Below are positions 1 to 28,179 of a stretch of DNA of 64,000 bases, in pieces. The position numbers and the translations under genes are program-made. The stretch is from Clostridia bacterium. Its GTDB lineage: Bacteria; Bacillota; Clostridia; TANB77; CAG-508. Each line of letters begins with the position of its first letter. The first letter of the stretch is position 1. Where the stretch lies: positions 75,103 to 139,102 of the forward strand of contig JAFTJF010000006.1 of assembly GCA_017456555.1 (NCBI GenBank). The letters are read 5' to 3'. The notes under the pieces were generated by a model. The model saw nothing but the letters and a program-made list of their open reading frames with translations. It was not told the DNA's origin and made no database searches.

Positions 1-670
1 TAATTTTATGATTTTTATATAATACTTTTAATAATTCATAGGCTATTTCTGTTCTTTCTAAAATATCGTCTTTTATTGTTCCTGTAAAAGCTAAATTTAA
101 AGCAATTTCATCTGATTCAAATTTAGGCCATAAAACACCTGGAGTATCTAATAGTTCTTGATTTTTTCCAATTCTAATCCATTGTTTTGATTTTGTTACA
201 CCTGGTCTATTTCCAACTTCTGTTGAATTCTTTTTAGATATTCTATTTATAAAAGATGATTTACCAACATTTGGTATTCCAAGTATCATTACTCTTATTG
301 TTTTATTTATTCTTCCTCTTGCTGCTTGTTTTGCAATTTCATCTGCCATTATATTTTCAATAGCTTTTGAAACCTTATCAATTCCTTTTCCTGAATTAGA
401 ATCGGTTAAAATAGTTGGGGCTTCTTTTGATAAATAATTTACCCATTTACTATTTATTGTTTCATTTGCTAAATCACATTTATTTAAAAGAATTATTCTT
501 TTTTTATTTTTTGTTAATCTTTTAATGTCTGGATTTCTACTTGCTAGTGGAATTCTTGCATCTAATAATTCAATTACTACATCTATTATTTTTAAATCAT
601 CTTCAATTTGTCTTCTGGTTTTGGCCATATGCCCCGGGAACCAGTTAATATTAAGTTTATTTTCATTCAT
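1..670 (-). CDS. rbgA: Ribosome biogenesis GTPase A (YlqF/RbgA). Partial: the C-terminus runs off the window start.
   Basis: Reverse translation from the ATG at 670-668 gives MNENKLNINWFPGHMAKTRRQIEDDLKIIDVVIELLDARIPLASRNPD. It is followed by NKCDL (G4), GIPNVGKSS (G1) and DTPG (G3), the circularly permuted GTPase order typical of RbgA. It is absent from the ORF track because there is no stop codon inside the window. Confidence 0.85.
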   Translation of the reverse strand, partial: MNENKLNINWFPGHMAKTRRQIEDDLKIIDVVIELLDARIPLASRNPDIKRLTKNKKRIILLNKCDLANETINSKWVNYLSKEAPTILTDSNSGKGIDKVSKAIENIMADEIAKQAARGRINKTIRVMILGIPNVGKSSFINRISKKNSTEVGNRPGVTKSKQWIRIGKNQELLDTPGVLWPKFESDEIALNLAFTGTIKDDILERTEIAYELLKVLYKNHKI

Positions 671-822
671 AAAATCACTTCCTCATTTTAATGTTTTATT
701 TTATATTTTGAACATCACTTTTACAAAAATCTTTTTTCTATATTTTTCAAAAAATAATACTTTATTATTATAACATAAATATCTTATAAAGTCCAATATT
801 ATGTTACTTTAAAAATTGACAC

Positions 823-854
823 AAAAAAACCCTTATGAAAATCATAAAGGTTTT
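823..854 (-). terminator. Rho-independent terminator downstream of the 864..1385 gene
   Basis: Hairpin CCTTATGA-AAA-TCATAAAGG, followed on the minus strand by a T-run. Confidence 0.6.
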
Positions 855-863
855 AAATTTTTC

Positions 864-1385
864 TTAAATTTTATATTGGTTTCTATCAGCTCTTTCATCA
901 AATTCTCTATCAAATTGTTCATTTGTATAGAACCAATCGCCTTTTTTAGTTCCTTTTCCTAATGTTCTATGTTTATTAAACAATATATCAAAAAATGTTA
1001 ATAATGGTATTAATACTCCAATTGCTGTTAACATCATATCTGTACTATTTGCAATTGTAAATCCACCTTCTTGTGCTCCTGTAAAGTTTATATATAATGC
1101 ATTTCCAAAATAAGCTACATATAATCCTAAATAAGCAGCAGCTCCTACAATATTTCTTTTAACCACCAATATTAAACATGGTAATGTTGCAAATAAAACT
1201 ATAATTTCATAAGTTACATTTAATGGTGTTGCAAAAAAATCTGCATCTAGTTGATATAATAATGTTACAATTGCTCTAAATAACCAAAATATAACTGAAA
1301 AAAAAGTAAGTAAATAACTAAATAAACTTGTCATCTGTATACCTCCTAATAATACCTGTAATAAAGATTTTCTATACAATGCCAA
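864..1385 (-). CDS. Hypothetical polytopic membrane protein
   Basis: 173-aa ORF with 4-5 hydrophobic helices and a charged C-terminal tail. It has a flanking terminator. No recognisable family motif. Confidence 0.6.
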   Translation of the reverse strand: MALYRKSLLQVLLGGIQMTSLFSYLLTFFSVIFWLFRAIVTLLYQLDADFFATPLNVTYEIIVLFATLPCLILVVKRNIVGAAAYLGLYVAYFGNALYINFTGAQEGGFTIANSTDMMLTAIGVLIPLLTFFDILFNKHRTLGKGTKKGDWFYTNEQFDREFDERADRNQYKI

Positions 1386-1508
1386 TCGTTAGAAACTCTA
1401 ATAATTTGCATATTTATCTTCTACTTTAAAAGTTTATCACAAATTAACATAAATTTCAATATAAATCGTCGTCTAAATTTTTAATTTCGCACCGATACTT
1501 ATAGACAT

Positions 1509-1536
1509 AAAAAAAGAGCATTTTCATGCTCCTTTT
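1509..1536 (-). terminator. Rho-independent terminator after the DUF1292 gene
   Basis: GAGCAT-TTTC-ATGCTC hairpin flanked by A- and T-runs. Confidence 0.6.
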
Positions 1537-1543
1537 TATTATA

Positions 1544-1852
1544 TTATTGTTCTCCATCTGTAAAGTTAAATTCATCTTTGAATTTTTCTTTAAAAATTTC
1601 AAATACAGCTGTTAATGTTTCTTCATCATCAACACTAACATATGATTCTTCATCACTATTTTCTTCTGAATCATCAACTTTTAATATTACTACTTCTCCG
1701 TCATCTTCTTCTCCATCTTCAAGAACTGGTAGTAATACTACGAATTCTTCTGATTCATATTCTATTAAATCTAAAAACTCAAATTGTACTTCATTTCCAT
1801 TTTCGTCATTTAATATTATGATATTGCTTAATTCTTCTAAATTTTCGTCCAT
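1544..1852 (-). CDS. DUF1292 (UPF0473) family acidic protein
   Basis: The sequence ILNDENGNEVQFEFLDLIEYESEEFVVLLP matches the DUF1292 pattern. It sits at the conserved Firmicute position after ireB-ruvX. Confidence 0.75.
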   Translation of the reverse strand: MDENLEELSNIIILNDENGNEVQFEFLDLIEYESEEFVVLLPVLEDGEEDDGEVVILKVDDSEENSDEESYVSVDDEETLTAVFEIFKEKFKDEFNFTDGEQ

Positions 1853-1965
1853 TTTTTATCTCCTTCCTTTGTATTTCCATACAAATCTAAAAATATAATA
1901 TACTAAACCTATTTTTTTTGCAATAGTTTTTTAATTATTTATATTTTTTTTTAATATAATGTATT

Positions 1966-2385
1966 TTATTTATTTTTATTCATGTACATTTCTAAAATAT
2001 AAACTGCAGATATTGTATCTACAATACCTCTTTTTTTAGTTTTGTTTACATCTAGAAAATTCATAGTTTTGTGAGCAGCAACTGTTGTTAATCTTTCATC
2101 AATTGTTTCAATTTTTAATTTGTTATATTTGCATTTCAATTTATGAATAAACTTTTCTGTAACTTCTGCTCTAATTGTTTTTGTACCATCCATATTATAT
2201 GGCATACCAACAACGATAGTATCTACTTCAGGATATTTTTCTAATATCTCATCTAATCTTCTTAACAAAACTTTGTCATTTCCATTATGAGTTATTGTTT
2301 CTAATCCTTGCGCAGTTATCCCTAAAGCATCTGTTACAGCGATGCCAACTCTACTATCTCCATAATCAATACCTAATGTTCTCAT
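1966..2385 (-). CDS. ruvX: Putative pre-16S rRNA nuclease / Holliday junction resolvase-like protein YqgF (RuvX)
   Basis: The protein starts MRTLGIDYGDSRVGIAVTD, is 139 aa long, and lies in the conserved ireB-ruvX-DUF1292 synteny. Confidence 0.9.
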   Translation of the reverse strand: MRTLGIDYGDSRVGIAVTDALGITAQGLETITHNGNDKVLLRRLDEILEKYPEVDTIVVGMPYNMDGTKTIRAEVTEKFIHKLKCKYNKLKIETIDERLTTVAAHKTMNFLDVNKTKKRGIVDTISAVYILEMYMNKNK

Positions 2386-2391
2386 ATTTAA

Positions 2392-2646
2392 TTAGTCTTC
2401 CAATCCGATGTAATATTTTACCATTTTTTCAAGTAGTTCATCTCTTTCAATTAATCTTATTAAATTTCTAGCATCATTATGGCTAGTAATATAAGTAGGA
2501 TCTCCTGATAAAATATATCCAACGATTTGATTTATTGGATTATACCCTTTTTCTACCAATGCTTGGTATACTTCTTTTAAAATTTCTTTTGCTCTTAGAG
2601 TTTTATCTTTATCTACTTTAAAACTCATTGTCTTATCTATAGCCAT
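2392..2646 (-). CDS. IreB-family regulatory phosphoprotein (UPF0297/DUF965)
   Basis: 84 aa. The sequence [41 protein letters not shown] is characteristic of this family. Confidence 0.85.
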
Positions 2647-2658
2647 ATTCTTTACCTC

Positions 2659-3795
2659 CTAAATATAATTAATTTGATTTTCAGATTTATCTACTGAATC
2701 TAAATATTCTTCTAATTTTTTATTTAATTGTTCAATTCCAGTACCTTTATAATAAGTTGATACTACAAAATTGATTTTTGGAGATGCTGATTTTTCTTCT
2801 TTTAGCTCTCTAACTCTTACTTTTTTACCATTGATTACTTTTACTACTTGAACTTCTTCTGCTTCTTCAACAATCTCAAGTTCTTCCATTTCACGTTTTA
2901 ATTCTTTTAAGAATTCTTCAACACTTGTTTCTTCAACTCCAGAGAATACAATTACAAATTTTGGTCCCATATATCTTACAAAAACATATTGTGCAGCCAT
3001 TTTAGTTTTTACTATATTACTAATTTCTGTAATTATATCATTTCCTATTTGTCTACTTGCTTTTTCATTTATTTCTTCGATGTTTGTAATTTTAAACATA
3101 CAAACTGCTGAAGTTGGATATTTATCAAATGTTCTTTTTGCTTTACTATATAAATATTCTGCTGAATATAATCCTGTAAATTTATCCGTTCTAACAATGT
3201 TTTCCATTGCATCTTGATAAGATATTGTAGATAATACAGAAATTATATTATCTTTTACAACTTCGATTATTGTTGTATCTGTTTTATCAAATGCATGCAT
3301 TCTTCCACTTTCCATTATCCAATATCCAATATAAATATTGTCTATATATAGTGGGAAAAACATTGCTGATTTGGCTCTTCCCATTTCAACTTTTTGATAT
3401 GGAAGTTTTTCATTTTCATTTTCTATTGTTATATATTTAGGGGTAGCTGTGGCAACACTATCTTGGAATATTTCCTCATTGTGTAAGTTTGTTAAAGTTT
3501 CATGATGTAATTTATCTACGTTTGTTGCTTTTATAACATATTCTGCACCATCAAAAACTACAATTGTAGAATATTTTATATCATATTGTTCTATAACTAT
3601 TTCATTAATTTTATTTAACTTAGCCTCTACTGAATCTTCTTCTCCAGCAACTTTCATAAAATCTTGTAAAACAGATAGATTACTTATTTGTTGATTTATA
3701 TTGTTATAAGTATCAATCTTTTTTTGAATATGAATGTTGTACATTATAAGAACTATGATTAGTACAACTAACATTGCGATTATTGCTATTACCAA
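2659..3795 (-). CDS. Membrane-anchored GAF-like protein with a degenerate GGDEF domain
   Basis: N-terminal TM helix (VIAIIAMLVVLIIVLIMY). The GGDEF-type domain opens with DKFTGLYSAEYL, but the active-site pentapeptide reads MGPKF instead of GG(D/E)EF. Confidence 0.6.
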   Translation of the reverse strand: MVIAIIAMLVVLIIVLIMYNIHIQKKIDTYNNINQQISNLSVLQDFMKVAGEEDSVEAKLNKINEIVIEQYDIKYSTIVVFDGAEYVIKATNVDKLHHETLTNLHNEEIFQDSVATATPKYITIENENEKLPYQKVEMGRAKSAMFFPLYIDNIYIGYWIMESGRMHAFDKTDTTIIEVVKDNIISVLSTISYQDAMENIVRTDKFTGLYSAEYLYSKAKRTFDKYPTSAVCMFKITNIEEINEKASRQIGNDIITEISNIVKTKMAAQYVFVRYMGPKFVIVFSGVEETSVEEFLKELKREMEELEIVEEAEEVQVVKVINGKKVRVRELKEEKSASPKINFVVSTYYKGTGIEQLNKKLEEYLDSVDKSENQINYI

Positions 3796-3814
3796 AACAA
3801 TTCACCCCTATATT

Positions 3815-6800
3815 TTAATATTTTTTCTTCATTTGATTTAAAGTATTATTCATATTATTAGAGAAATTATTTTTCCCATAATTTGTTTGTGGAGCTGATT
3901 TTCCATAAGTCGATTTACTTACTAATGGATATACCATATCTCCTAAATTTCTTAGTTTGCTCATAAATTGTTTTGAGTATCCGTTTATTGATACATTACA
4001 ATTTACCATAGCATCTAAATATTTTGAATATGCACTTTCATCAAATGGAATACTACAAGCTTTAACCATATCTTTATTAAATAATTCTGTCATAAATGAC
4101 ATTGATGGATCATTATAGAATGACATACCACCTATAATAGCTTTTGTTGTTAAACTTCTTACTTTTAATTCTTTGTTAATAACAACTCTAACTTTTTCTG
4201 GTTCTAATCCACCTTCTGTTTTTAACTTTCTTAAGAAAGCTGTTAACGGTTGTATTGTTAATATATCCATTGATTGCACTAAGTAAATTTCTTGACAACT
4301 TGCAAAATAAGATGTATCTGTATCAAAATCACAATCTATTAATATTAAAGAATGATTTTGAACTAATGTTGATAAAATTGGTTCAGCATCTGAATAATCT
4401 TTTCCATCATTTGGTAATGCTGTATAAACACTTAAATTTTTTCCAACTTTTATTCCTTCTGCAAATCCTTTTTGTAATTTACTTATAGAATTATATGCAA
4501 TATTTCTTAATTCTTCTTCATTATTTGTATAAATGTAGTAAGAATTTTTATTTTTTGTCATATCTAGAATTGCTGTATTTATTCCTAAAGAAGAGAATAA
4601 AGCTGCTAATGTATTTATTAAGAATGATGTTCCGTTTTTACTTGTTCCAACAAAAGTTACTATTTTCTTATCTTTAGTTAATAAACTATTTAAACTAGAC
4701 ATTGAGTAATCAACTTTTGGTTTAATACTCTCTATTTCTGTTGATTGATTCATTGAAGCAGTTTGTGTTGTAGTATTGAAATCATCTTCAACATCAAAAC
4801 CAGCTAATAAATCATCTTCTCCGTCTTCGAAGTCATCTCCTGCACCTGGTAATATTTCTTCAATACTTTTTTCAGTTTGTACATCAGATTCGCTTTCTAA
4901 ATCATCTAATTCATCAAGTCCAGGTAATGCTACTTCATCAGTATATTCTTCCTCTTCAGCATCTTCACTTACAAGAGGCATTGTTTCATCAACTTCTTCA
5001 AAATCATCCATCATTCCTGGTAAAGTGTCTTCTTCGAAATCTTCGAAGTCATCTCCCATACCTGGTAATGTATCATCTTCAAAGTCATCTAAACCGTCAT
5101 CTTCTAAATCTGGTAATAAATCATCTTCCTCTTCTAAAGGTGATTCTTCCATTCCTGGTAGTAAATCTTCTTCATCTTCAAGAGTATTTTCTTCCATTCC
5201 TGGTAGTAAGTCTTCTTCATCTTCAAGAGTATTTTCTTCCATTCCTGGTAATAAATCTTCTTCCTCTTCGAAAGTATCTTCTTCCATTCCTGGTAATAAG
5301 TCTTCTTCCTCTTCAAAAGTATCTTCTTCCATTCCTGGTAATAGGTCTTCTTCATCTTCGAAAGTATCTTCTTCCATTCCTGGCAATAAGTCTTCTTCAT
5401 CTTCAAAAGTATCTTCTTCCATTCCTGGTAATAGGTCTTCTTCATCTTCGAAAGTATCTTCTTCCATTCCTGGCAATAAGTCTTCTTCATCTTCAAAAGT
5501 ATCTTCTTCCATTCCTGGTAATAAATCTTCTTCGTCTTCAAAAGATTTTTCTTCTACTTCTGGCAATATCAATTCATCATCTTCAAAGTCATCCATCATT
5601 CCTGGTAACATGATATCGTCTAAATCTTCTTCTTTTTCTATTTCTTGAGGCTCAACTTTTTTTGGTCTTCCTCTTCTTTTTTTCTCTGCAGGATCAGTAA
5701 CAACCGCTTTTGGTGTTTTACTTAAATTTATTGGTGGTACTTGCTCTTTTTTCACTTGAGGTGCTACTGGTCTTACCACTTTATTTTCAGCATTTACTTT
5801 TTGAACTGGTTTTACAGTTTTTTCTGCATTTACTGTTTCAACATTTTTGCTTGTTGGAGTTACAGTTTTTTGTGTTGCAACTGGTTGTGCACTTACAGGT
5901 CTTGTTGGTCTAGCAGGAGCTGTTTCAGCAGTTGCTTGAGTTCTTTGTAATTCTGATTTTTTTACAATTTTCTTTGTTCTTTCTTGTTCTGGTTTAGTTA
6001 CAGGAACTTCTATATTATTTCCCATCGGTCTAACCGGAGCTGGTCCTTTATTTTTTGATGTTCTAACAGAAGATGGTATAACTATTGGTCCAGACATTTT
6101 ATTTGCATTCATTTTATTTTCGATAATATCTATTTTTATACCGCTTTGTTTTCTAGCTTCTTGATTAACAGCATCTTGTCTATTTACTTTTTTTACCATT
6201 CCATCTACAGACATTAATTCTTGATATTTTTTACAATCATCTTCAAGAACTACTTTTACATTTGTTGGTAAACAATTAATAATAATTTTTAATTGATCAT
6301 CTGTATATTGAGCTGCTATATTATTAAAACTATCAGCAAATTTATCTGTATTTTTTCCTAATTTTTTGAAGTGAGTTAAAATATTTTGAATTTCTAATTC
6401 ACTAACTTCTTCTGAACTTTTATTAGCATAATTAGCTTCATCAGCATCAATTTGATAATACATTTTTGCTTCTTTTTTTAATCTAGGTTTGTTTATTAAT
6501 CTACAGATTTGTTCTATACTTTTTTCACTACCTAAAAGAGCATTGTATATTCCGATACTGAATAATTTAACTAAAAATGAACTTCCTTTAGTATGTCTAT
6601 CTGAACACACTAAAATTATGGAAGTTTCATTTCCATCTATATCTTGTGCTTCATCGCTAATATCATCAAGTTTTTCAAAGATAAATTTATCTATTGCATC
6701 ATAATTATTATTTGAGAATGACTCTAAATCTTCACTTATAACTATTCTATCATAGCTTTTATCTTTTTGTATCTCTTTTAATATTGCGTTAAAGTAATAT

Positions 6801-6898
6801 ACTTTTTTATAAGAAAGGATTTCTTTGTAATCCTTTTGATATTTCTTTATGATTGCATCAGAAATATTCTCACTACTAACCGCAAATAAAACTTTCAT
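3815..6898 (-). CDS. Giant pseudo-receiver / AT-hook / acidic LPGM-repeat / degenerate ParA-MinD-like protein (TadZ/CpaE-like architecture, orphan)
   Basis: The ORF track gives 3815..6919. A GGAGG lies 9 nt upstream of the internal ATG at 6898 (MKVLFAV), so that start is favoured. The N-terminus is CheY-like. The basic P/V/K-rich middle contains KKRRGRPKK. Nine near-identical units of the form EDLLPGMEEDTFEDE are followed by about six degenerate ones. The C-terminal P-loop has KKIVTFVGTSKNGTSF and LILIDCD. Confidence 0.7.
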   Translation of the reverse strand: MKVLFAVSSENISDAIIKKYQKDYKEILSYKKVYYFNAILKEIQKDKSYDRIVISEDLESFSNNNYDAIDKFIFEKLDDISDEAQDIDGNETSIILVCSDRHTKGSSFLVKLFSIGIYNALLGSEKSIEQICRLINKPRLKKEAKMYYQIDADEANYANKSSEEVSELEIQNILTHFKKLGKNTDKFADSFNNIAAQYTDDQLKIIINCLPTNVKVVLEDDCKKYQELMSVDGMVKKVNRQDAVNQEARKQSGIKIDIIENKMNANKMSGPIVIPSSVRTSKNKGPAPVRPMGNNIEVPVTKPEQERTKKIVKKSELQRTQATAETAPARPTRPVSAQPVATQKTVTPTSKNVETVNAEKTVKPVQKVNAENKVVRPVAPQVKKEQVPPINLSKTPKAVVTDPAEKKRRGRPKKVEPQEIEKEEDLDDIMLPGMMDDFEDDELILPEVEEKSFEDEEDLLPGMEEDTFEDEEDLLPGMEEDTFEDEEDLLPGMEEDTFEDEEDLLPGMEEDTFEDEEDLLPGMEEDTFEEEEDLLPGMEEDTFEEEEDLLPGMEENTLEDEEDLLPGMEENTLEDEEDLLPGMEESPLEEEDDLLPDLEDDGLDDFEDDTLPGMGDDFEDFEEDTLPGMMDDFEEVDETMPLVSEDAEEEEYTDEVALPGLDELDDLESESDVQTEKSIEEILPGAGDDFEDGEDDLLAGFDVEDDFNTTTQTASMNQSTEIESIKPKVDYSMSSLNSLLTKDKKIVTFVGTSKNGTSFLINTLAALFSSLGINTAILDMTKNKNSYYIYTNNEEELRNIAYNSISKLQKGFAEGIKVGKNLSVYTALPNDGKDYSDAEPILSTLVQNHSLILIDCDFDTDTSYFASCQEIYLVQSMDILTIQPLTAFLRKLKTEGGLEPEKVRVVINKELKVRSLTTKAIIGGMSFYNDPSMSFMTELFNKDMVKACSIPFDESAYSKYLDAMVNCNVSINGYSKQFMSKLRNLGDMVYPLVSKSTYGKSAPQTNYGKNNFSNNMNNTLNQMKKKY
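5100..5560 (-). repeat. In-frame 45-nt tandem repeat array with a 90-nt higher-order unit, inside the giant CDS
   Basis: The motif ccattcctgg recurs every 45 nt (5149, 5194, 5239 and so on, nine copies). Blocks 5341-5430 and 5431-5520 are near-identical 90-mers. Confidence 0.9.
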
Positions 6899-6902
6899 TT
6901 GT

Positions 6903-7322
6903 TTAACCCCTCCAACCATTTACTACTATAGCAAATATTAATGGTAATACTTGGCATATTAATAAAATTGTTACGAAAGTGATAATAAGCATAAATCCTC
7001 TATCTCTAACGTCCAATTTTCTAATTCCTAGTACATATTGATATATTGATCCTACGGCAATACCAACAAAGCAGAATGGTATACTATAAATTCTTACAAT
7101 ATTTAATATGTAAGCAGCCACTCCAAATGGTGTTGAACCATATTTTTCAATATATTCTGCTAATTTTCCTTTTGTTGTTTCTTTAATTTCTACTAATTCT
7201 GTTGCTTGTGTTGAATTTAAAACCTCGTTTCCTGTAACTGCGTAAGCGTTATTGGCAAACATAGATATTGTTCCAACTAACATTATAAAAATTATTACAA
7301 CCATTGATATTTTCTTTAACAT
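6903..7322 (-). CDS. Small secreted/membrane protein: signal peptide plus three TM helices
   Basis: MLKKISMVVIIFIMLVGTISMFANNAYA is a signal-peptide-like N-terminus, followed by hydrophobic helices. Its TAA stop lies 4 nt before the ATG of the giant gene, which suggests translational coupling. Confidence 0.6.
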   Translation of the reverse strand: MLKKISMVVIIFIMLVGTISMFANNAYAVTGNEVLNSTQATELVEIKETTKGKLAEYIEKYGSTPFGVAAYILNIVRIYSIPFCFVGIAVGSIYQYVLGIRKLDVRDRGFMLIITFVTILLICQVLPLIFAIVVNGWRG

Positions 7323-7464
7323 AATTTATAAAAAACCCCCTTTAGGCTAATTTTTCTAATATTATACATATAATATAATACTATATATTACAGAAAATAT
7401 CAACCTAAATTACCAAATTTATCAAATTTTTTGCTATTAATTTGATTGTAAAATATTCATAATA

Positions 7465-7493
7465 ATTTTAATCTTAATATTATTTTTTGTCAA
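7465..7493 (-). promoter_or_regulatory. Candidate sigma-A promoter of the 7322-2659 operon
   Basis: On the minus strand: TTGACA, 17 nt, TAAAAT. It lies directly downstream of the ynbB stop. Confidence 0.4.
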
Positions 7494-7500
7494 ACTTAAT

Positions 7501-8760
7501 TTAATCTTCTTTTAACATATTTTCTATTGCCATCATTATGCCAATTTTTCCGTATTCATAAGTTAATCCACCTTGCATATATGCTGTATAAGGTTCACAA
7601 ACTGGTCCATCACAACTTAATTCTATTGTTGCCCCTGGTGTAAAGCTTCCACCAGCCATAATTTCTTTATGTTCATAACCTGGCATGTCGTCGGGTACTG
7701 GTGTTACATAAGATTCTATAGGAGAACCTTTTTGAACACCTTGACAGAATTTTATTAATTTTTCTGCAGTTTTTAATTCTATTGTTTGAATAATATCAGT
7801 TCTTTTTTCATCATATCTTGGACTAACTCCATCAAAACCAAATCTTTCTAGCATTCTACTTGCATATGTCATTGTTTTTAATACTGATTTTACAACAGAT
7901 GGAGCCATAAAAATTCCTTTATAATATGCTAATAATTGATTAAAATTTGCTCCTAAATCTTTTCCAATACAAGGTGCTGTTAATCTTTCTGCAACTTGGT
8001 GTACTAAATCTTTTCTTCCTACTACGTAACCTCCACTTGTAGCAATTCCTGCTCCAAGATTTTTCATTAAAGAACTTATAAAAATATCTGCTCCAACTTC
8101 TGTTGGTTCTTTGTCTTCTACAAATTCTCCATAGCAATTATCTACCATTACAATTACATTATTATCAATTGCTTTTATTTTAGAAATTACTTTTTCTATT
8201 TTATACATTGTTAGACTTTCTCTTTGAGAATATCCTCTAGAACGTTGAATTTCTATTAATTTTATATTTCCTTGTCTTACTCTTTCTTCTATTTTCTCAT
8301 AATCAAAATCATTATTAACAAGGGCAATTTCTTCATATTTTATTCCATGTTTGATTAAAGAGTTTTCACTATCTCCTGAAAGTCCAATAACACTTTTTAA
8401 TGTATCATATGGTTCTCCAGAAATACTAACCATAGTATCTCCATATTTAAGCAAACCAAACAAAGTAATTGTTAATGCATGTGTACCAGACATTATTTGT
8501 GGTCTAACTAGTGCATCTTCTGCTCCAAATATTTGAGCATAAATTCTTTCTAATTTTTCTCTTCCACCGTCATAATATCCATAACCTGTAATTTCATTAA
8601 AATCAGTTGTTGAAACTCTATTATCTTGAAAAGCTTTTAAAACTTTCATACTAGATTTTAAACAATTATTTTCATATTCTAAGAATATTTTTTCTAATTC
8701 TTTTTCTACTTCATTTGAAATTTCGATTATTTCATCTCTAATACCAAATTCTTTATACAT
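7501..8760 (-). CDS. ynbB: PLP-dependent YnbB / aluminium-resistance family protein (Met gamma-lyase-like)
   Basis: 419 aa. The N-terminal region LKAFQDNRVSTTDFNEITGYGYYDGGREKLERIYAQIFGAEDALVRPQIMSGTHAL is typical of the family. Confidence 0.75.
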   Translation of the reverse strand: MYKEFGIRDEIIEISNEVEKELEKIFLEYENNCLKSSMKVLKAFQDNRVSTTDFNEITGYGYYDGGREKLERIYAQIFGAEDALVRPQIMSGTHALTITLFGLLKYGDTMVSISGEPYDTLKSVIGLSGDSENSLIKHGIKYEEIALVNNDFDYEKIEERVRQGNIKLIEIQRSRGYSQRESLTMYKIEKVISKIKAIDNNVIVMVDNCYGEFVEDKEPTEVGADIFISSLMKNLGAGIATSGGYVVGRKDLVHQVAERLTAPCIGKDLGANFNQLLAYYKGIFMAPSVVKSVLKTMTYASRMLERFGFDGVSPRYDEKRTDIIQTIELKTAEKLIKFCQGVQKGSPIESYVTPVPDDMPGYEHKEIMAGGSFTPGATIELSCDGPVCEPYTAYMQGGLTYEYGKIGIMMAIENMLKED

Positions 8761-8778
8761 TTTATTTCCTCTTTTCCT

Positions 8779-8813
8779 AAAAAATGGATACTCTTTCAGT
8801 TAAAAGTATCCAT
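8779..8813 (-). terminator. Rho-independent terminator after the PPIase gene
   Basis: ATGGATACT ... AGTATCCAT 9-bp stem followed by a T-run on the minus strand. Confidence 0.6.
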
Positions 8814-8820
8814 TTCTAAT

Positions 8821-18246: not shown

Positions 18247-18454
18247 TATCACCTCTTTTCGTATTAAATTTTAAATTTGATTTTTTGGTCAATAGAAAAA
18301 TTTGACCTTAAGATAATAGCAAAATCGCTATAATTTGAATTTATTGAAATAAATTTTAAGTATATTACTACAGTTTTATTTATTTGTAAATACTTTTTTA
18401 AAAATTTTATATCAAACTAAAATTTATTTACTCTATAATAAAACCTTTTAATAA

Positions 18455-18512
18455 ATTAAAAAAACAATTGGGGCTAAACCCTACCACAAAAACTTGTTTA
18501 GAGTTTAGCCCC
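18455..18512 (-). terminator. Terminator of the two-component operon
   Basis: Perfect 10-bp stem GGGGCTAAAC / GTTTAGCCCC, followed by a T-run on the minus strand. Confidence 0.55.
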
Positions 18513-18566
18513 TCTCCTATTATTTCCTTTTCTATTTACAATTAAATATTATCAAATATTTTTTTA

Positions 18567-20126
18567 TTAGTCAATATTTCCTTTGTGATTTTTGTGTGAA
18601 TTCTCACTCTCTCCTTTAGCTTCTTGTATATCAAAATAGAATTCTACACCATTTTTCTTATTCTTAACTCCATAAGCACTATTATATTTTGTCATGATAG
18701 CTTTTACTAGAGCTAAACCTATTCCAGTCCCACCTTTTGATCTAGTTCTTGCTGTGTCTACTTTATAGAATCTTGTCCAAATTCTATTTAAGTTTTCTTC
18801 ATCAATTTTCTTTCCAGTATTAAATACTGATACTCTGTATTTACCTAGTTCTTTGCTTTTCTTAATTGTAATTTTTATTTCTTTTACTTTATCTACTTCT
18901 TGAACATTTTTTATTGCATTTGTAAAATAATTTGTAACAACTTGTTCAATATAAAAATCATCAGCAAAAACATATATTGGATTTTCTTCTGAAAAATCTA
19001 CATTAATTTTTTGTTCTGTTAAAACAACTTTTGAATTTTTTACAACAGAATTAATTAATTCTACTAAATCAAATTTATCATCATTAAATTTTCTGTCTTC
19101 ATATTCAAGTTTCATAAGTTCTAACAAACGTTTAACTAATTTATCCATTTTGTTAGCTTCATCTAAAATAACTTCTGCATAAAATTTTTTAGATTCTTCA
19201 TCTGAATTTACATTCTCAACTAAACCTTCTGCATATCCTTGTATTAAAGCAATTGGTGTTTTTAATTCATGAGATACATCAGATATAAATTGTTTTCTCA
19301 TTTCATCAATTTTTGATTTTGCTTCTATATCTTTTTCAAGTTCAGAATTATTTATTTTTAATTGATTAATTGTATCTTCTAATTTATCAGATAATGTATT
19401 TATACTTTTTCCAAGTTCATCTATTTCATCTTCGCTATCATTAATTCTATATTTTCTTTTGAAATTTAATTTACTCATTTCATTTGCTATATCATTTAAT
19501 TCTTCAATTGGTTTTGTAAATCTTTCTGTTATAAATAATATTGCAACTCCACCTAAAATAATTGCTGCAAATCCTAATACATAAATAAATCTATTTGAAA
19601 GTGCTGCACTCTCTTGAATTGGTGCTACTGGAGTTCTTAAATAAAATTGATTTCCATTCTCTAATACTGCATCTACTAAAACATAAGGTATTCCATTTTT
19701 CTTATTAACAATTTTTCTAATGCTTATATTTTCTTTAGAATACATTATATCTGTTTTATTAAATATACTATAATCAACATTATAGGTTATATCATTTATT
19801 GTTCCAAATTCGGATACATAATTTTTATTTGTAGCATATACAGTTTGATCACTATTTACTATTAAAATTTCAAAATTGTTATTTACTGATAGTCTTTCTA
19901 AACTTGAATCATACTGTCCCATTTCTTCTTCATTAATTTCTTTAGGAATGTTTTGATTTACATATTCATACATTTCTAAAGCAGCATTCTTTTTAGAATA
20001 ATAATATAATGTTTCTAAAACAGTATTATTTATTACTATAAAAAATAATATTATCATGAAAATAACAATACATAAAGTTAAAAATAATTTTGCACGAACT
20101 GATTTAAATAAATTTTTCTTTATCAT
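18567..20126 (-). CDS. Sensor histidine kinase (2 TM, HAMP, HisKA, HATPase)
   Basis: SHELKTPIALIQGY H-box and GGTGIGLALV G-box. Confidence 0.9.
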   Translation of the reverse strand: MIKKNLFKSVRAKLFLTLCIVIFMIILFFIVINNTVLETLYYYSKKNAALEMYEYVNQNIPKEINEEEMGQYDSSLERLSVNNNFEILIVNSDQTVYATNKNYVSEFGTINDITYNVDYSIFNKTDIMYSKENISIRKIVNKKNGIPYVLVDAVLENGNQFYLRTPVAPIQESAALSNRFIYVLGFAAIILGGVAILFITERFTKPIEELNDIANEMSKLNFKRKYRINDSEDEIDELGKSINTLSDKLEDTINQLKINNSELEKDIEAKSKIDEMRKQFISDVSHELKTPIALIQGYAEGLVENVNSDEESKKFYAEVILDEANKMDKLVKRLLELMKLEYEDRKFNDDKFDLVELINSVVKNSKVVLTEQKINVDFSEENPIYVFADDFYIEQVVTNYFTNAIKNVQEVDKVKEIKITIKKSKELGKYRVSVFNTGKKIDEENLNRIWTRFYKVDTARTRSKGGTGIGLALVKAIMTKYNSAYGVKNKKNGVEFYFDIQEAKGESENSHKNHKGNID

Positions 20127-20138
20127 TTATTTCATCCT

Positions 20139-20819
20139 TTATTTTATTTCAAATTTATATCCAATTCCTCTTATTGTTTGAATGTGTTTTCCTTTTTTTC
20201 CAAGTTTATGTCTAATTTTTTTGATATGACTATCTATTGTTCTTGAATCTCCATAATAATCATAATTCCAAACTGTATTTAAAATTTTATCTCTAGATAG
20301 TGCAATATTTTCATTATCTAATAAATATTTTAAAAGTTCATATTCTCTAAAGCTTAACTCAACTGCTTTTCCATCAACTGTTACTGTTCTTCCTTCATTA
20401 TCAATAACAATTCCATCATAGCTTTTTAATTCTTTTGCATCTGGTTTTGATCTTTTTAAAATTGATTCTACCCTTGCTACTAAAATTTTAGGGCTAAATG
20501 GTTTTGTTATATATTCATCTACTCCAAGTTCAAATCCGAATAATTCGTCTTGTTCTTCTGCTCTAGCAGTTAGCATAACTATAGGTAATTTTTTATTTTC
20601 TTGACGTATATTACGAAGTACAGACCAACCGTCAAGTTTTGGCATCATAACATCTAATAAAATTAAATCTATTTTTTCTCTATTTTCTTCATAAACTTTT
20701 AATGCTTTTTCTCCGTCTTCTGCTTCTAATATGTTAAAATTCTTTTGTATTAAAAAATCTTTGATTAACTTTCTCATTCTAGATTCATCATCTACTATTA
20801 AAATTGTTGCATCTCCCAT
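20139..20819 (-). CDS. OmpR/PhoB-family response regulator
   Basis: Receiver domain with ILIVDDE ... LLDVMMPKLDG. Winged-helix C-terminus ending IQTIRGIGYKF. Confidence 0.92.
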   Translation of the reverse strand: MGDATILIVDDESRMRKLIKDFLIQKNFNILEAEDGEKALKVYEENREKIDLILLDVMMPKLDGWSVLRNIRQENKKLPIVMLTARAEEQDELFGFELGVDEYITKPFSPKILVARVESILKRSKPDAKELKSYDGIVIDNEGRTVTVDGKAVELSFREYELLKYLLDNENIALSRDKILNTVWNYDYYGDSRTIDSHIKKIRHKLGKKGKHIQTIRGIGYKFEIK

Positions 20820-20939
20820 TTTTTACCTCCATATTTTACTACGTCTTTTATATTTATTAACATCCTTATTAAATTTTCTTCTATTAATCCAATTTAACAG
20901 TATACTTATACCATATAATTATGTTTTTTGTGTGAATTT

Positions 20940-22709
20940 CTAAGCCTCAATTAATTTTTTTAATTCGTTTAAATTTTTCTCAAAATATCTAAACGCTTCA
21001 TCATATGTTTCTTCTTTTTCTAAGTCTACATCTACCATTCTTAGAAGTGTTAATGAATCTTTTGCTCCACCTTGACTTAACATATTTATATATTTTTCAA
21101 CATAACCAGGCTCTCCCGCTAAAATTTTGCTTGCTATTACTATTGCAGAAGTAATTCCAGTTGCATATTTATAGACATAAAAACATCTATAAAAATGAGG
21201 AATTCTAGCCCATTCATATTTTATTGGTTCATCAATAATACAGCTTTCACCAAAATATTTCTTAACTAATTCAAAATAAATATCATTTAGATTATCAGAT
21301 GTTAAGCTTTCACCTGCTTCAATTTTTCCATGAACATCTTTTTCAAATTCGGCAAACATTGATTGTCTTATTAGAGTTGATCTAATCATATCTAGTTGTT
21401 CATTAATTAAAGCCATTTTCTTTTTATTATCATTTTCTTTATTTATTAAATAATTTGCTAAAAGAATTTCATTTACGGTTGAAGCAACTTCAGCAACCAT
21501 TATTGTATAATTTGCGTTTATTATATTTTGATTTTTACTTGCATAAAAACTATGCATTGAATGACCAAGCTCATGTGCTATTGTTGAAACATCTCTTGAT
21601 GAATTTATATAATTTAATAATACAAATGGATGAAGTGTATGAACTCCCATACTATATGCTCCACTCATCTTATTGTCATTTGTATAAACATCAAGCCAAT
21701 TATTTTCAAAAGCATGTTTTAATGTATTTACATATTCTTCTCCCATAGGAGCTAGCGCTTCTAAAACAGTTTGTTTTGCATCTTCATATTCGATTTTTGT
21801 ATCTTCTACATCTAATGTATTTACATATACATCATACATATGGACTTGTTCTTTATTTAAAAGTTTTGCTTTTAATTTTATATATTCGTGATTTAAATAT
21901 AAATTTTTATTTAGCTCTTTTAATAAAGTTTCATATACTTTTACATTTGAGTCATCATGATTTGTTGCAGCATCCAATGATGATTCATAATTTCTTAATT
22001 TACTAGAAATTACTTTTTGTTTTACTCTTGATAAATATAATTCTGTTATTGTATTTATATGTTTTTTATATAAAGAATACATTGATTCAAAAGCTTGTTT
22101 TCTGATACTTTCTGATTTACTCATTAAATATTGTGAAAACATTGCTGATGACATTTTGTGTTCGAAGCCTTCTTCATCAACAATACTTGGATATTCAAAT
22201 TCAGTATTTGTAAAAATATCATAAGTATTTTCACTACTAGAAAATATTTCTGAATATTTAGCAAGAACTTGTTCTACTTCTTCACTAAGAATATGTTTCT
22301 TTTCTTTCATAATATCTCTTACCATTTTTTCATATTCTTTCATTCTATCATCTTTTAAATATTCTTCTAATTGTTCATCAGAAATTTTACTTATTTCTGG
22401 TGACATGAAACTTTCTGCTTCTGAGAATTCCGTAGTTAAAGTTTCAATTCTTTTATATAATTTTATTGCATCTTGATTACTCATATCTTGATGATATTTA
22501 AACATTGCATATGCATAAATTTTTTCTTGTAATTCTAAAGCTTTTTCTAAAGTTTTGAAACAATTAAACATTTCATCCACATTGTTTGCTAATTTTCCTT
22601 TAAATTGTTTTATTTTTCCAATCAAACTATATAGCTCACTAATAGAATTTTCTAAAGCTTCATCATTTTCAAAGATTTCAGTTAAATCCCAATTGTATTT
22701 ATTTTCCAT
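20940..22709 (-). CDS. pepF: Oligoendopeptidase F (M3B)
   Basis: 589 aa, with HELGHSMH zinc motif. Confidence 0.88.
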   Translation of the reverse strand: MENKYNWDLTEIFENDEALENSISELYSLIGKIKQFKGKLANNVDEMFNCFKTLEKALELQEKIYAYAMFKYHQDMSNQDAIKLYKRIETLTTEFSEAESFMSPEISKISDEQLEEYLKDDRMKEYEKMVRDIMKEKKHILSEEVEQVLAKYSEIFSSSENTYDIFTNTEFEYPSIVDEEGFEHKMSSAMFSQYLMSKSESIRKQAFESMYSLYKKHINTITELYLSRVKQKVISSKLRNYESSLDAATNHDDSNVKVYETLLKELNKNLYLNHEYIKLKAKLLNKEQVHMYDVYVNTLDVEDTKIEYEDAKQTVLEALAPMGEEYVNTLKHAFENNWLDVYTNDNKMSGAYSMGVHTLHPFVLLNYINSSRDVSTIAHELGHSMHSFYASKNQNIINANYTIMVAEVASTVNEILLANYLINKENDNKKKMALINEQLDMIRSTLIRQSMFAEFEKDVHGKIEAGESLTSDNLNDIYFELVKKYFGESCIIDEPIKYEWARIPHFYRCFYVYKYATGITSAIVIASKILAGEPGYVEKYINMLSQGGAKDSLTLLRMVDVDLEKEETYDEAFRYFEKNLNELKKLIEA

Positions 22710-22909
22710 TTTCCCTCCTATTTACGAATCTTATCTTTTGAATTAATTATTTAAATATTTATAAAAATAAAGTTAATTAGTATCTTAATTAATTTTATTC
22801 ATTTTTTAGTATTTTATCACAGTTTATAATATTAGAGCAATAAATTTATTTACATTTTCAATTTCTGTGATATAATAGCATTAGCCTAGTATTTAAGGAG
22901 GTTGTTAAA

Positions 22910-23449
22910 TTGAAATTAAATTCAGATGATCAAACACTTGCTGAAAGCAAAATCTTACTTTTATATATTTTAAGTAAAGTAGGAAAACCAATTTCACACA
23001 ACGAACTTTTAGAATTGGTTTCATCAATTGTTGATATGAACTACTTTTATTTCCAACAATTTTTACTAGATTTGTTAGAAGATAATTATATTTTCAAATA
23101 TATACAAGAAGATACCGAAATATATGAAATAACTCCTGATGGAAAAAATGCAATAGATCTTACTATTGATATCATTCCAGGAATTTTAAAATTAGAAGTT
23201 GATAGCAAATTTAAAGCAAACTTAGACACAATAAAAGATAAATTTTCTATCTCAGCAGAATATACTCCTTTATCAGAAAGAGAATTTTCTGTAAGATGTA
23301 AAATTGTTGAAAACAATATCACAATTTTTGATTTACAAGCTCATGCTGGTTCAAGAGAGCAAGCAAAGAAAATTGTCGAAAATTGGAATACTAGAGCAAC
23401 AGAAGTTTATCCAAAACTCCTTGAATTATTAATTGGAGATGAAAATTAA
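22910..23449 (+). CDS. DUF4364-family protein (putative wHTH regulator)
   Basis: TTG start after AAGGAGG. LAESKILLLYILSKVGKPISHNELLELV is typical of DUF4364. Confidence 0.6.
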   Translation: MKLNSDDQTLAESKILLLYILSKVGKPISHNELLELVSSIVDMNYFYFQQFLLDLLEDNYIFKYIQEDTEIYEITPDGKNAIDLTIDIIPGILKLEVDSKFKANLDTIKDKFSISAEYTPLSEREFSVRCKIVENNITIFDLQAHAGSREQAKKIVENWNTRATEVYPKLLELLIGDEN

Positions 23450-23490
23450 ATCTCATTAATTAGCCTTTAAATAAATATTTATAAAAACCA

Positions 23491-23532
23491 AGAAAGAAGA
23501 TAGAGTAAATAAAATTGCTCTATCTTCTTTCT
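23491..23532. terminator. Bidirectional terminator
   Basis: 15-bp perfect stem AGAAAGAAGATAGAG / CTCTATCTTCTTTCT. Confidence 0.7.
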
Positions 23533-23581
23533 TACTTATTACTATTATATATTATTTTCAAATAATGATTTTCATTATTAA

Positions 23582-24385
23582 CTATTTTATTTTTCCTGTA
23601 CTTCTATATGCCTCATATAAAATTACACTTGTTGCAACAGCTGCATTTAAGCTCTCTGTTTTTCCACTCATTGGAATTTTTATTCTAGTTGTAGCTTCAT
23701 TTAATACTTCTTCTGAAACTCCATTAGCTTCATTACCAATAACTATTGCAGATTTTTTATAATCAACATCATAAATACTTTTATCTGTTCTTAAATCTGT
23801 TGCATAAACTTTAATTTTATGTTTTTTCATTTCTTTTATTGTTTTTACTAAATTGTTAGATACAACAACTTTTATTCTAAAAATTGCTCCCATTGTTGAT
23901 CTTACAACTTTTGGATTATAAATATCTGCAGTATCTTTAGATACAATTATTTGTTTAAAATTCAAGCTGTCTGCTGTTCTTAAAATTGTTCCCATATTTC
24001 CTGGATCTTGAATGTTATCTAATACCAAAAAATTATCTTCTTCAAAATCAATTGCATTTTCTGTATTTTCCGGTTTTTGAATTATTGCCATTATTCCTTG
24101 AGGATTAATAACATCAGTTATATAGCTAAATACTTTTTCAGAAACATATATACAATCAAATTTTGCAATTTCATACATTAATTCATTTGGTATACAACAT
24201 GTATTTTTGCAATCATCACATATAATAATAGATTTTATTTTGGCATTTTCATTTATTGCCTCTTCTATCATTTTTATTCCTTCAACTATAAATTCCTTGT
24301 ACTCTTCTCTGTATTTTTTCTCTTTTAATTTTTTTATATGTTTTATAGTTTCGTTATCTTTACTTGTAATCAACATATTTCTCAC
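23582..24385 (-). CDS. TrmH/SpoU-family RNA 2'-O-methyltransferase
   Basis: Contains LDNIQDPGNMGTILRTA, VIGNEANGVS and ESLNAAVA motifs. Confidence 0.85.
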   Translation of the reverse strand: MRNMLITSKDNETIKHIKKLKEKKYREEYKEFIVEGIKMIEEAINENAKIKSIIICDDCKNTCCIPNELMYEIAKFDCIYVSEKVFSYITDVINPQGIMAIIQKPENTENAIDFEEDNFLVLDNIQDPGNMGTILRTADSLNFKQIIVSKDTADIYNPKVVRSTMGAIFRIKVVVSNNLVKTIKEMKKHKIKVYATDLRTDKSIYDVDYKKSAIVIGNEANGVSEEVLNEATTRIKIPMSGKTESLNAAVATSVILYEAYRSTGKIK

Positions 24386-24436
24386 CTTTATTTATTATTT
24401 TACACTTTTTTTCTTTAATTATTCAAGTTTTTATCT

Positions 24437-27400: not shown

Positions 27401-27892
27401 ATCATATCTTTCATATCCAAGTAGAACTAGTTTTTCTTTTAAATCTTCTAAATCAACTTGCTCTCCTACTTTTAATTCCATTACATTTTTATATAGTTTT
27501 TCTTTAGTAATCATTTTTTGCATTGCAGCTTCTATTGTCGTTACAACAATTTTCTTTTCGTTTTTTACTAAAGCATTTAATACAGATATTCTTTTAAATA
27601 GTGTATCTTTACTTTCTGCTACATAGTCAAAACTTATTACATCTCTTTTAGGAAAAAATCTTACTTTTTCACCAAAGAAATCTAAATCTTTTATTATTCT
27701 TTTTGCTTGCATTTCATTATAAGTAATAATACAAATTGGCTTTTCTGAATAAAATTTTGTTGAATAAGCCATATGGATTTTTCCCACATCAGTTAAACCT
27801 GATAGCATAATTGGTGTAGTGCCTTTATTAAGCTCAAATAAATAGTCATTAAACTTTTTAACATTTGGTACTGTCTTGATTAATGAATTCAT
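24437..27892 (-). CDS. mfd: Transcription-repair coupling factor
   Basis: 1151 aa. CarD-like domain, DEAD/H helicase motifs (GDVGYGKTEVA, DEEHRFG) and a TRCF C-terminus. Confidence 0.95.
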   Translation of the reverse strand: MNSLIKTVPNVKKFNDYLFELNKGTTPIMLSGLTDVGKIHMAYSTKFYSEKPICIITYNEMQAKRIIKDLDFFGEKVRFFPKRDVISFDYVAESKDTLFKRISVLNALVKNEKKIVVTTIEAAMQKMITKEKLYKNVMELKVGEQVDLEDLKEKLVLLGYERYDLIEGKGQFSVRGGIVDIATSENSGVRIEFWGDEIDSIRKFSLTTQRTVKMLEKIEIYPSYEFLLADDIDTVCERIGDKIYPNSVKEKVKDDIYQIKNGEFLTKIDKYFDCFYTETDTLLDYLENDCIVFIDEIAKIKARAENITKDNTHLMKDLTEKNKIVPGILTEMKDYIKFSEGLTKKQVVYLEKQDIGFVDKESMHAKRNGYSFSYREVNFFRSSMDLLFQELQEAINRGKQTVILGGSTENCRKLSTLLLEKEIPNVYTDFLEEDLTLGVVNITPGAFSAGFEFYDAELLVISTEELFESKPKKRLKTPSAFKEGEVVVFADLKEGDFIVHKAHGIGQYLGVNTIRADGITKDYIKLKYKDDDILYIPTNSLDNIRKYVGPEKIGPRLNRLGSKEWDKTKARVKNNLREVAEELIELYAKRQKMEGFAFSKDTPWQQEFEDSFKYVETDDQLRCIEEVKKDMEKPKPMDRLLCGDVGYGKTEVAIRAAFKSVMDQKQVVYLVPTTVLAQQQYESFRDRMKEYPVRIELLNRFRTKKEQEDTLKRVELGETDILVGTHRVLSKDVNFKNLGLLIIDEEHRFGVKAKEKIKEMKNSIDVLTMTATPIPRTLHMSVVGMRDMSVIYEPPQNRKPVQTYVLEYDKEVIKEAITRELEKGGQVFYLFNNVEGIEKKALEISEIVEEAKVEYAHGKMTGNQLENIMQDFVDGKCNVLVCTTILESGIDIPNANTIIVENADRLGLAQLYQIRGRVGRSEKQAYAYITYRRDKLLSEVADKRLKAIKEFTEFGSGFKIAMRDLEIRGAGSLMGEIQHGHMEQIGYDMYCKLLDEVVKEIRGEEIVEEIDVQIELDVTSYIPEDYIENAGLKIEVYQNIALCKNEEDIENVTDEIIDRFGQMPYEVENLLDIARIKILSREKSILKVAQRRENVIFYFDNEKFNFDIVDKLMKMYRNRIKFSPSKDPYITFKITDLKNILEETKEFLSKL

Positions 27893-28122: not shown

Positions 28123-28179
28123 TAGTGCTTTTAATACACTGATTTGCGTTTGGTACTAATAGTTTCTGCTTTATAAAAG

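Follow-up and report, generated by a model that had tools for sequence, protein, structure and literature searches.

A MinD/ParA-fold protein with a receiver-like domain, encoded upstream of ireB in uncultured gut Clostridia, and its candidate role as a membrane-associated scaffold

Genes and transcript at the locus

We analysed a stretch of 64,000 nucleotides (nt) from a Clostridia bacterium (contig JAFTJF010000006.1 of assembly GCA_017456555.1, positions 75,103 to 139,102; hereafter the window), and concentrated on three adjacent minus-strand genes located just upstream of ireB and ruvX. They encode a small membrane protein of 139 amino acids (aa; 6903..7322), a large protein of 1027 aa (3815..6898) and a GGDEF-like membrane protein of 378 aa (2659..3795). 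The large protein founds a family for which we found no published description and which has no model in the libraries searched. Beyond the lack of a model, the family is new in that its P-loop lysine is relocated, a small membrane protein is its obligate partner, its place before ireB is fixed and the linker between its end domains is exchanged wholesale. All the folds are already known, and the architecture echoes that of TadZ.

The first-pass annotation of this DNA described an orphan three-gene operon with gaps of 4 and 19 nt behind a TTGACA-17-TAAAAT promoter, and the genes, the gaps and the promoter-like site are indeed as it described them. The large gene starts at the ATG at 6898, after a GGAGGGG ribosome-binding site (the mechanical open reading frame, ORF, begins at 6919), and is separated by 4 nt from the stop codon of the small gene (6905-6903). 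The GGDEF-like gene uses a TTG start at 3795, 19 nt past the stop codon of the large gene (3817-3815). The predicted sigma-70-type promoter (7465..7493, minus strand) lies within the 178-nt gap upstream of the small gene; it matches the consensus at 11 of 12 positions and is the top promoter-like site in 800..9000, while promoter-like sites as a class are not enriched (43 found versus 54 expected in shuffled sequences). The operon region has 26% G+C and its composition equals that of its flanks.

The word orphan had to be given up. On the same strand the genes continue into ireB (2392-2646), ruvX (1966-2385), a gene encoding a DUF1292 protein (1544-1852) and a gene encoding a 173-aa membrane protein (864-1385), and the first terminator-like hairpin on this strand downstream of the operon start is found at 854-826. 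The spacing is tight at the junction: ireB begins 12 nt past the GGDEF-like gene, and its AGGAGG overlaps the stop codon of the latter. From this layout, a single transcript would probably extend from about 7465 to about 830, covering the operon through the 173-aa gene. Scanning the whole window (1..64000) with Rfam gave nothing at the gathering score, i.e. no tRNA, riboswitch, T-box or leader, and in particular no riboswitch or leader upstream of the operon.

Domains and linker of the large protein

The large protein (minus strand) is predicted to be cytoplasmic and has no transmembrane segment. No model of Pfam or NCBIfam (at E ≤ 0.1) or of PADLOC recognises it, and searches of all PDB sequences with each domain (phmmer) and with the family profile (hmmsearch) returned no match, so that it still cannot be assigned to a described family, as had been concluded from the sequence. 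Its sole library match, to Peptidase_S49 (17.2 bits against a cut-off of 24.9), was treated as chance. When 1.84 billion representative proteins were searched exhaustively with a profile, 427 matched (50% clustering, E ≤ 1e-3), and many of these representatives are 700-1434 aa long with the C-domain at the C-terminus. Judged from these matches, the family appears sizeable and set apart from canonical ParA/MinD.

The C-domain (residues 727-1027; 3818..4720, minus strand) was modelled with AlphaFold2 from the last 301 residues and 52 homologues, with a predicted local distance difference test score (pLDDT) of 78.7 and a predicted template-modelling score (pTM) of 0.78. In Foldseek this model matches ParA, Soj, FlhG, MinD and BcsQ (E 5e-8 to 1e-6, probability 1.00), with template-modelling scores (TM-scores) of 0.5-0.7 and 12-18% identity to ParA/MinD-type structures. 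The model supports a ParA/MinD fold. Sequence profiles are far less sensitive to it: the window protein has no Pfam match to the CbiA, AAA_31, ParA or MipZ models, and one distant member scores 18.6 bits against CbiA, under the cut-off of 25.4. Aligning the C-domain profile with E. coli MinD in hhalign was not significant (probability 0.2); the alignment covers helix 1, strand 2 and switch I of MinD, and it served solely to set the register of the P-loop.

In this register the P-loop GTSKNGTS (residues 751-758; 4625-4648, minus strand) has Thr at both K11 and K16 of MinD and an invariant Lys at the position of G13. Hence both lysines of the deviant Walker A motif xKGGxGK[ST], signature and catalytic, are replaced by Thr. 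The pattern GxxKxGT[ST] is found in the window, in the 52 aligned relatives and in distant members, whose P-loops read GANKAGTT, GTNKVGTS, GAHKVGTT and GTSKNGVS. We know of no precedent for such a P-loop; WNK kinases, which relocate their catalytic lysine, offer a loose parallel. The degenerate Walker A and the ParA/MinD-like fold proposed by the first-pass annotation are thus borne out by AlphaFold2, Foldseek and the hhalign register. Other residues of the site are retained: G25, K28 (K754 of the large protein), G30, S32, D53, D129 and D131 are invariant in the P-loop/Walker B region of the C-domain, and so, in the family alignment, are the aspartates of switch I and Walker B.

The C-domain ends in a basic and aromatic tail, FSNNMNNTLNQMKKKY (3818-3865, minus strand). 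Family C-termini always combine a basic cluster with Phe, Leu or Tyr (KKKY, KKFFG, KKGLF, GLFKRR), and the last 20 residues have a median net charge of +4. In MinD and FlhG, the membrane-targeting sequence is a short tail of this kind, basic and hydrophobic, at the C-terminus. The family therefore shares with MinD/FlhG this tail and the fold (Foldseek E ~1e-7), but differs from them in the loss of both deviant Walker A lysines and of the switch II DxxG glycine, in the lack of a MinC/MinE or FlhF partner and in the huge N-terminal extension fused to the domain. A relation to BY-kinases (bacterial tyrosine kinases, CapB/Wzc-like) was rejected, as the C-domain has no Walker A lysine, no Tyr cluster and no adjacent Wzz partner; no dedicated test of this candidate was made.

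At the other end of the protein, residues 1-148 (6455..6898, minus strand) form a receiver-like domain with a CheY fold. The AlphaFold2 model of the first 274 residues (pLDDT 75) has a (beta/alpha)5 receiver-type fold over this range. In Foldseek it superposes best on the receiver-like domains of CpaE/TadZ (4n0p, 4myr and 4dn6), with target-normalised TM-scores of 0.63-0.76 and root mean square deviations of 3.0-4.2 Å, and it also matches NarL-type response regulators (E 2e-4). Model and structural search support the receiver-like assignment that had been made by reading the sequence. The start of the domain, MKVLFAV…, recurs in distant members. The residues needed for phosphorylation are another matter: strand 1 is not followed by an acidic pair (in its place stands a poorly kept consensus, S-N/S-E), Lys is missing after strand 5, and strand 3 is followed by an invariant Glu (ISEDLEP) where Asp is expected (compare ISDWNMP in CheY). 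This mapping onto CheY was done by eye along the predicted strands, and a comparison of the N-domain profile with CheY in hhalign aligned a spurious 5-mer and left it unconfirmed. With this mapping, the domain is predicted to be phosphorylation-incompetent.

The pairing of these two ends is what led the first-pass annotation to call the protein TadZ-like, and the resemblance in architecture and fold is real. TadZ/CpaE proteins also join an N-terminal, atypical and non-phosphorylatable receiver-like domain to a C-terminal, atypical ParA/MinD-fold domain with a crippled Walker A motif that lacks the catalytic lysine, and are presumed to act in scaffolding or positioning. The large protein could then be a divergent TadZ/CpaE serving a Tad (type IVc) pilus, with the remaining pilus genes in another part of the genome; its N-domain superposes on CpaE better than on any other structure. 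We nevertheless find this very unlikely. TadZ is described as found uniquely in Tad systems, whereas we found no tad, cpa or flp genes in the window or in eight distant neighbourhoods (the rest of these genomes lay outside the search); conjugation and partition genes are absent from the window as well, in agreement with the earlier reading. TadZ has a Walker-A-like motif, K/RGGxGxS/T, that keeps the signature lysine, whereas this lysine is missing in T-S-K-N-G-T-S. No CpaE/TadZ model of NCBIfam or Pfam matches the large protein, and TadZ (3FKQ) is not among the 50 best structural matches of the C-domain. The protein also differs from TadZ/CpaE in having about 580 residues between the domains (the helical module described below plus, across the family, 200-850 aa of disorder), in the lack of detectable sequence similarity, and in having a small hairpin partner and ireB as a neighbour. 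The invariance of the linkage with ireB counts against a TadZ/CpaE identity as well.

The receiver-like domain is followed by a conserved five-helix sub-domain (residues ~167-229; 6212..6400, minus strand), predicted with a pLDDT of 85-91. Full-length NarL/LuxR-type regulators align over ~215-240 columns across this module, with a TM-score no better than for the receiver alone, and the module has no GerE or helix-turn-helix (HTH) match in Pfam. From the model, it is possibly HTH-like.

The rest of the region between the end domains is disordered and consists of two segments of opposite charge. The first (residues 230-427; 5618..6211, minus strand) is basic, rich in Pro, Val and Lys, with a net charge of +17, and ends with the AT-hook KKRRGRPKK (residues 406-414; 5657-5683, minus strand). 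This motif has the R-G-R-P core flanked by basic residues and may bind DNA. The second (residues 428-700; 4799..5617, minus strand) is acidic, with a net charge of -129, and contains 16 LP[GDE] motifs (about 15 repeats in the first-pass annotation), with a core made of the 15-aa repeat EDLLPGMEEDTFEDE. Part of it is encoded by a tandem array at 5110-5587 (a 45-nt unit in 10.6 copies, 89% matches), from which ten of the 16 motifs derive. On the opposite strand, ORFs of 277-299 aa, rich in Ser, Lys and Pro, face the repeat array (4749..5648, plus strand); they are artefacts of the codon periodicity of the repeats and not genes.

The AT-hook, the acidic repeats and the long insert of ~600 aa are thus all present in the window protein as had been noted, but the content of the insert is not conserved. 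Compared with the nearest relative (L001), the acidic region is only 61% identical, against 86-96% for the flanking domains. The charge order, basic then acidic, is repeated in 45 full-length orthologues, and AT-hook-like cores, one or two each, are found in 34 of 46; the other 12 have none, even though some of them share 89-90% identity in the C-domain. Of the five distant members read over their whole length, four lack AT-hooks too (the exception, P0336, has two), and their linkers are entirely different, with Q/E/K/A coiled-coil-like repeats, Pro-rich tracts, N/Q-rich tracts or mixed low-complexity sequence. The conserved parts of the family are the N- and C-domains only, and the linker is swapped wholesale between lineages. 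Such an exchange, with both end domains kept, is useful for thinking about tethers and condensate-forming scaffolds.

These patterns bear on the idea, raised in the first-pass annotation, that the protein tethers the nucleoid. It would link the nucleoid to the membrane or position the chromosome, with the AT-hooks bound to AT-rich DNA, the MinD-like end on the membrane, and the acidic block acting in auto-inhibition or as a DNA mimic. ParA-family proteins classically act on the nucleoid, and the 26% G+C of the genome and the possibly HTH-like module would suit such a role, as would the position of KKRRGRPKK at the boundary between the basic and acidic segments, the hooks of the 34 orthologues and the precomputed Pfam AT_hook match of one homologue (P0146). 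Against this stand the orthologues and distant members that lack hooks, and the absence of a ParB/parS-like partner. The linker and its AT-hooks are not conserved, and therefore nucleoid tethering cannot be the core function of the family. We consider this reading unlikely; DNA binding may be a lineage-specific addition in the branch of the window. The acidic repeats also recall hubs of the HubP/FimV type. HubP, a transmembrane protein with a LysM anchor, recruits ParA-like ATPases that are proteins of their own, and these hubs have in common with the large protein a long, acidic and repetitive cytoplasmic region associated with ParA-family proteins. Here, in contrast, one and the same protein carries the acidic repeats and the ParA-like domain, and the repeats are not found family-wide.

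Partner proteins and gene order

The small protein begins with a sequence that resembles a signal peptide (…NAYA/VT); about 45 soluble residues come next, followed by two hydrophobic helices with the basic loop RKLDVRDRG between them. Neither Pfam, NCBIfam nor PADLOC gave a match for the window protein. It is 35% identical (E 5e-23) to the product of the upstream gene in a distant locus (L081), and its gene lies directly upstream of the large gene in all 66 related loci (Scatovivens group) that reach that far.

To place these genes among relatives, we used a pattern scan with one genome per species, which retrieved 308 genomes with a C-domain relative, and took the best 80 of the 308 for the analysis of loci. 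These 80 are all metagenome-assembled genomes (MAGs) of uncultured Clostridia from animal and human guts, the nearest being Candidatus Scatovivens (96% identity). As far as each contig reaches, all 80 loci have the order small gene, large gene, GGDEF-like gene, ireB, ruvX and DUF1292 gene, while the neighbour upstream of the small gene varies. The genes are tightly packed or overlapping across relatives, and 6-29 nt separate the GGDEF-like gene from ireB in nearly all of 79 loci. In 45 of 66 related genomes a single uninterrupted ORF of 754-1364 aa joins the N- and C-domains. A further 17 fail this test solely because tblastn placed the start a few codons too far upstream, and the large gene is broken in the remaining four (by runs of N in three and by an early stop in one). 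The operon genes are therefore real and not chance ORFs.

More distant members, with end domains 32-42% identical and RuvX 48-56% identical to those of the window, give a different picture of the unit. We read eight such contigs for gene order. In six of them the order is small gene, large gene, ireB, ruvX and DUF1292 gene, without a GGDEF gene; in another (L087) a GGDEF gene follows the large gene and the contig then ends, and the last (L082) is too short to show the order. The proposed conservation of the trio thus holds in the 80 close loci but not in the distant ones. The deep conserved unit is made of the small and large genes with ireB-ruvX-DUF1292, and the GGDEF-like gene is a later, lineage-restricted insertion.

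Two observations concern the variation of this region. In the short contig L082 (1..3144; Logan contig of SRR27608101) the large gene occurs twice in tandem, without an intervening small gene: a C-domain at 241-996 ends the upstream ORF, and a complete paralogue of 649 aa is found at 1195-3144. In addition, a PF06838 gene ('Met_gamma_lyase'/YnbB-like) lies upstream of the small gene in the window (7501..8760, minus strand) and in its closest relatives, and downstream of the DUF1292 gene in the distant L081, L083, L084, L085 and L088, which indicates a local rearrangement around the module.

One could also see in this module the domesticated remnant of a conjugative or mobile element, with the large protein as a ParA-like partition protein and the small one as a VirB2-like pilin. 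The topology of the small protein is compatible with VirB2/TrbC, and two of 30 small-protein members have sub-threshold matches to PF18895 (T4SS_pilin; T4SS, type IV secretion system), both in distant loci (25.8 bits in L085 and 21.7 in L083, for a cut-off of 26.6); the window protein has no such match. This explanation is extremely improbable. The module keeps the same chromosomal position across genomes as divergent as indicated by their RuvX, and its base composition matches the surroundings. No T4SS, relaxase or integrase genes adjoin it, the single integrase, in L085, being 5.6 kb beyond the module and past six housekeeping genes. Finally, tblastn against 72,556 plasmids gave no match for a small-protein homologue or for the C-domain.

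The GGDEF-like protein consists of an N-terminal transmembrane helix, a conserved alpha/beta region (~residues 40-190) and a GGDEF domain (~186-318). The latter is recognised by PF00990 (40.3 bits for a cut-off of 23.8, E 3.7e-10) and TIGR00254 (43.2 bits for a cut-off of 37.4, E 3.2e-11), profile searches of PDB retrieve diguanylate cyclases at E 6e-12, and all 27 orthologues tested have a GGDEF profile match. In place of RxGGDEF the protein has RYMGPKF (2956-2976, minus strand), which is invariant in 77 orthologues, and F/K..T stands where cyclases have the metal-binding D-x-D. There is no I-site RxxD either, its place being taken by AAQY (ESDD in one sub-clade). With MGPKF and the metal-binding Asp replaced, the domain is predicted to be catalytically dead, in line with the first-pass annotation. 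The latter also proposed a GAF-like domain between the transmembrane helix and the GGDEF domain. Four orthologues match GAF_2 over nearly the whole profile with 13.7-14.9 bits, below the cut-off of 28.6, an alignment scan found sub-threshold matches in three of 27 orthologues, and the region ~40-190 has no profile match in PDB. A GAF-like nature of this region is only weakly indicated by these similarities.

A membrane protein of this composition could make the module a sensor of cyclic di-GMP (c-di-GMP) or GTP, in line with the nucleotide sensing suggested in the first-pass annotation, in which the GGDEF-like protein binds the nucleotide and controls the scaffold. The GGDEF fold is kept in every orthologue tested, weak GAF_2 matches precede it, and degenerate GGDEF receptors of similar layout exist, i.e. 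PelD and BcsE (PMC7439463). But the I-site RxxD that receptors of this type use is the very motif that is lost, the residues that bind metal and GTP are replaced (DxD by F/K..T, GGDEF by MGPKF), and the gene is missing in most distant members, which makes it accessory and not core. There is, in our view, little chance that nucleotide sensing is what the module is for. The 378-aa protein probably has a layout like that of PelD, with a membrane anchor, a possibly GAF-like domain and an inactive GGDEF domain; PelD differs in having four transmembrane helices instead of one and an I-site RxxD, through which it binds c-di-GMP, and there are no pel genes here.

A similar set of parts is found in the BcsQ-BcsR/BcsE/BcsF system of enterobacterial cellulose secretion (PMC7439463; 6ybb). 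There, a MinD/ParA-like protein is accompanied by a receiver and a GGDEF domain, both degenerate, and by a short membrane polypeptide through which the complex is recruited; structures of BcsQ rank among the top matches of the C-domain. The parts are arranged differently. In the window the receiver and the MinD-like domain belong to one polypeptide, and a second protein, anchored in the membrane, carries the GGDEF domain. Moreover, there is no I-site RxxD, no bcsA, bcsB or other synthase gene in the operon and no sequence similarity, and the host is Gram-positive.

Proposed role and other loci of the window

A pseudo-receiver, a fold that binds proteins elsewhere (as in TadZ), is thus combined with a MinD-like domain that has a MinD-style tail, and we therefore favour a membrane-associated organiser. 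We tentatively propose, with a little less than even confidence, that the large protein serves as a positioning scaffold, non-catalytic and associated with the membrane, with a possible tie to the cell envelope. The locus would be the head of a chromosomal operon conserved in Candidatus Scatovivens and its relatives, and its core a two-gene module, composed of an exported, membrane-embedded hairpin protein and a large cytoplasmic scaffold that would act as a non-catalytic, or at most slowly cycling, spatial organiser. Its MinD-like end would be held on the membrane by the tail and/or by the small membrane partner, its receiver-like end would bind a client, and the disordered spacer would set the reach of the protein or drive clustering. 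In the Scatovivens branch, this core would have gained accessories: the AT-hook and acidic repeats in the spacer, and the membrane-anchored dead GGDEF protein. By analogy with BcsE-BcsQ, the latter may dock on the MinD-like domain, since the degenerate GGDEF domain of BcsE binds the MinD/ParA-like BcsQ, in a complex that is brought to the membrane by BcsF, a small membrane protein (PMC7439463).

The process organised by the scaffold could be cell envelope growth or cell division, because the linkage with ireB is invariant, IreB/ReoM, a substrate of the PASTA kinase, controls MurA and peptidoglycan synthesis (PMC8528326), and cell-wall enzymes are encoded upstream in distant loci. A D,D-carboxypeptidase of the Peptidase_S11/PBP5 type is directly upstream of the small gene in four of these loci, and a glucosaminidase (G5-SH3) in a fifth (upstream cell-wall genes: L081 4227-5264; L085 5350-6483; L086 3089-4267; L088 2795-3970; L087 1719-2972). 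A more specific proposal, which we regard as unlikely, is that the family is a new MinD/ParA branch whose catalytic lysine has been relocated in the P-loop and which still binds a nucleotide or turns it over slowly. With its obligate small partner it would make up a spatial-organising system of a new kind, feeding into the control of peptidoglycan synthesis or division by the PASTA kinase and IreB across a large clade of uncultured gut Clostridia.

Several points weigh against the scaffold proposal. The involvement in envelope or division is its weakest step: the whole region is syntenic housekeeping DNA, where PF06838, HI0933-like and other genes are syntenic too, and the adjacency to ireB may be historical, not functional. 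The cell-wall neighbours of the distant loci are absent upstream of the small gene in the window itself. Nor is the protein established as non-catalytic, because G25, K28, G30, S32, D53, D129 and D131 are retained; nucleotide binding, and even turnover, may persist. The idea of membrane targeting rests on the composition and position of the tail, because a test of its hydrophobic moment was not discriminating (genuine MinD tails score low in the same test). The similarity of the small protein to T4SS_pilin stays below the threshold, and the composition of a transmembrane hairpin could account for it. Finally, every carrier found is an uncultured MAG.

The family is of interest beyond this locus. 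ParA/MinD-type proteins are the main placement machinery of bacteria, and new branches have repeatedly revealed new cargoes. This one occurs in at least 308 species-level genomes of abundant, uncultured Clostridia of animal guts and was missed by every sequence model tried. In the lineage of the window, the system appears to be built wholly from 'dead' signalling domains (receiver, MinD/ParA and GGDEF). Its fixed place before ireB gives a concrete lead on cell-wall growth or division in these Clostridia.

Two other loci of the window deserve mention. The pyruvate formate-lyase (PFL) gene (12154..14388, plus strand) is split by a single in-frame TGA at 13912-13914: a PFL-like ORF of 586 aa runs up to 13914, and 9 nt further on the Gly_radical part (154 aa) begins in the same frame. 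This ORF is the sole real gene of the window that 'ends' in TGA. A recoding of TGA was rejected, since 19 of 567 conserved genes of relatives have TGA as their stop codon and the Trp codon of the small gene is TGG. The in-frame TGA has the look of a nonsense mutation confined to this locus, an error of sequencing or assembly, or a genuine split of the gene. The second locus (15536..18035, minus strand) encodes a surface protein of 432 aa with a SpaA fold and a thioester domain (TED), between two ORFs without a Pfam match. It resembles a sortase-type adhesin locus and adjoins a pair of genes for a histidine kinase and an OmpR-type regulator (18567..20819).

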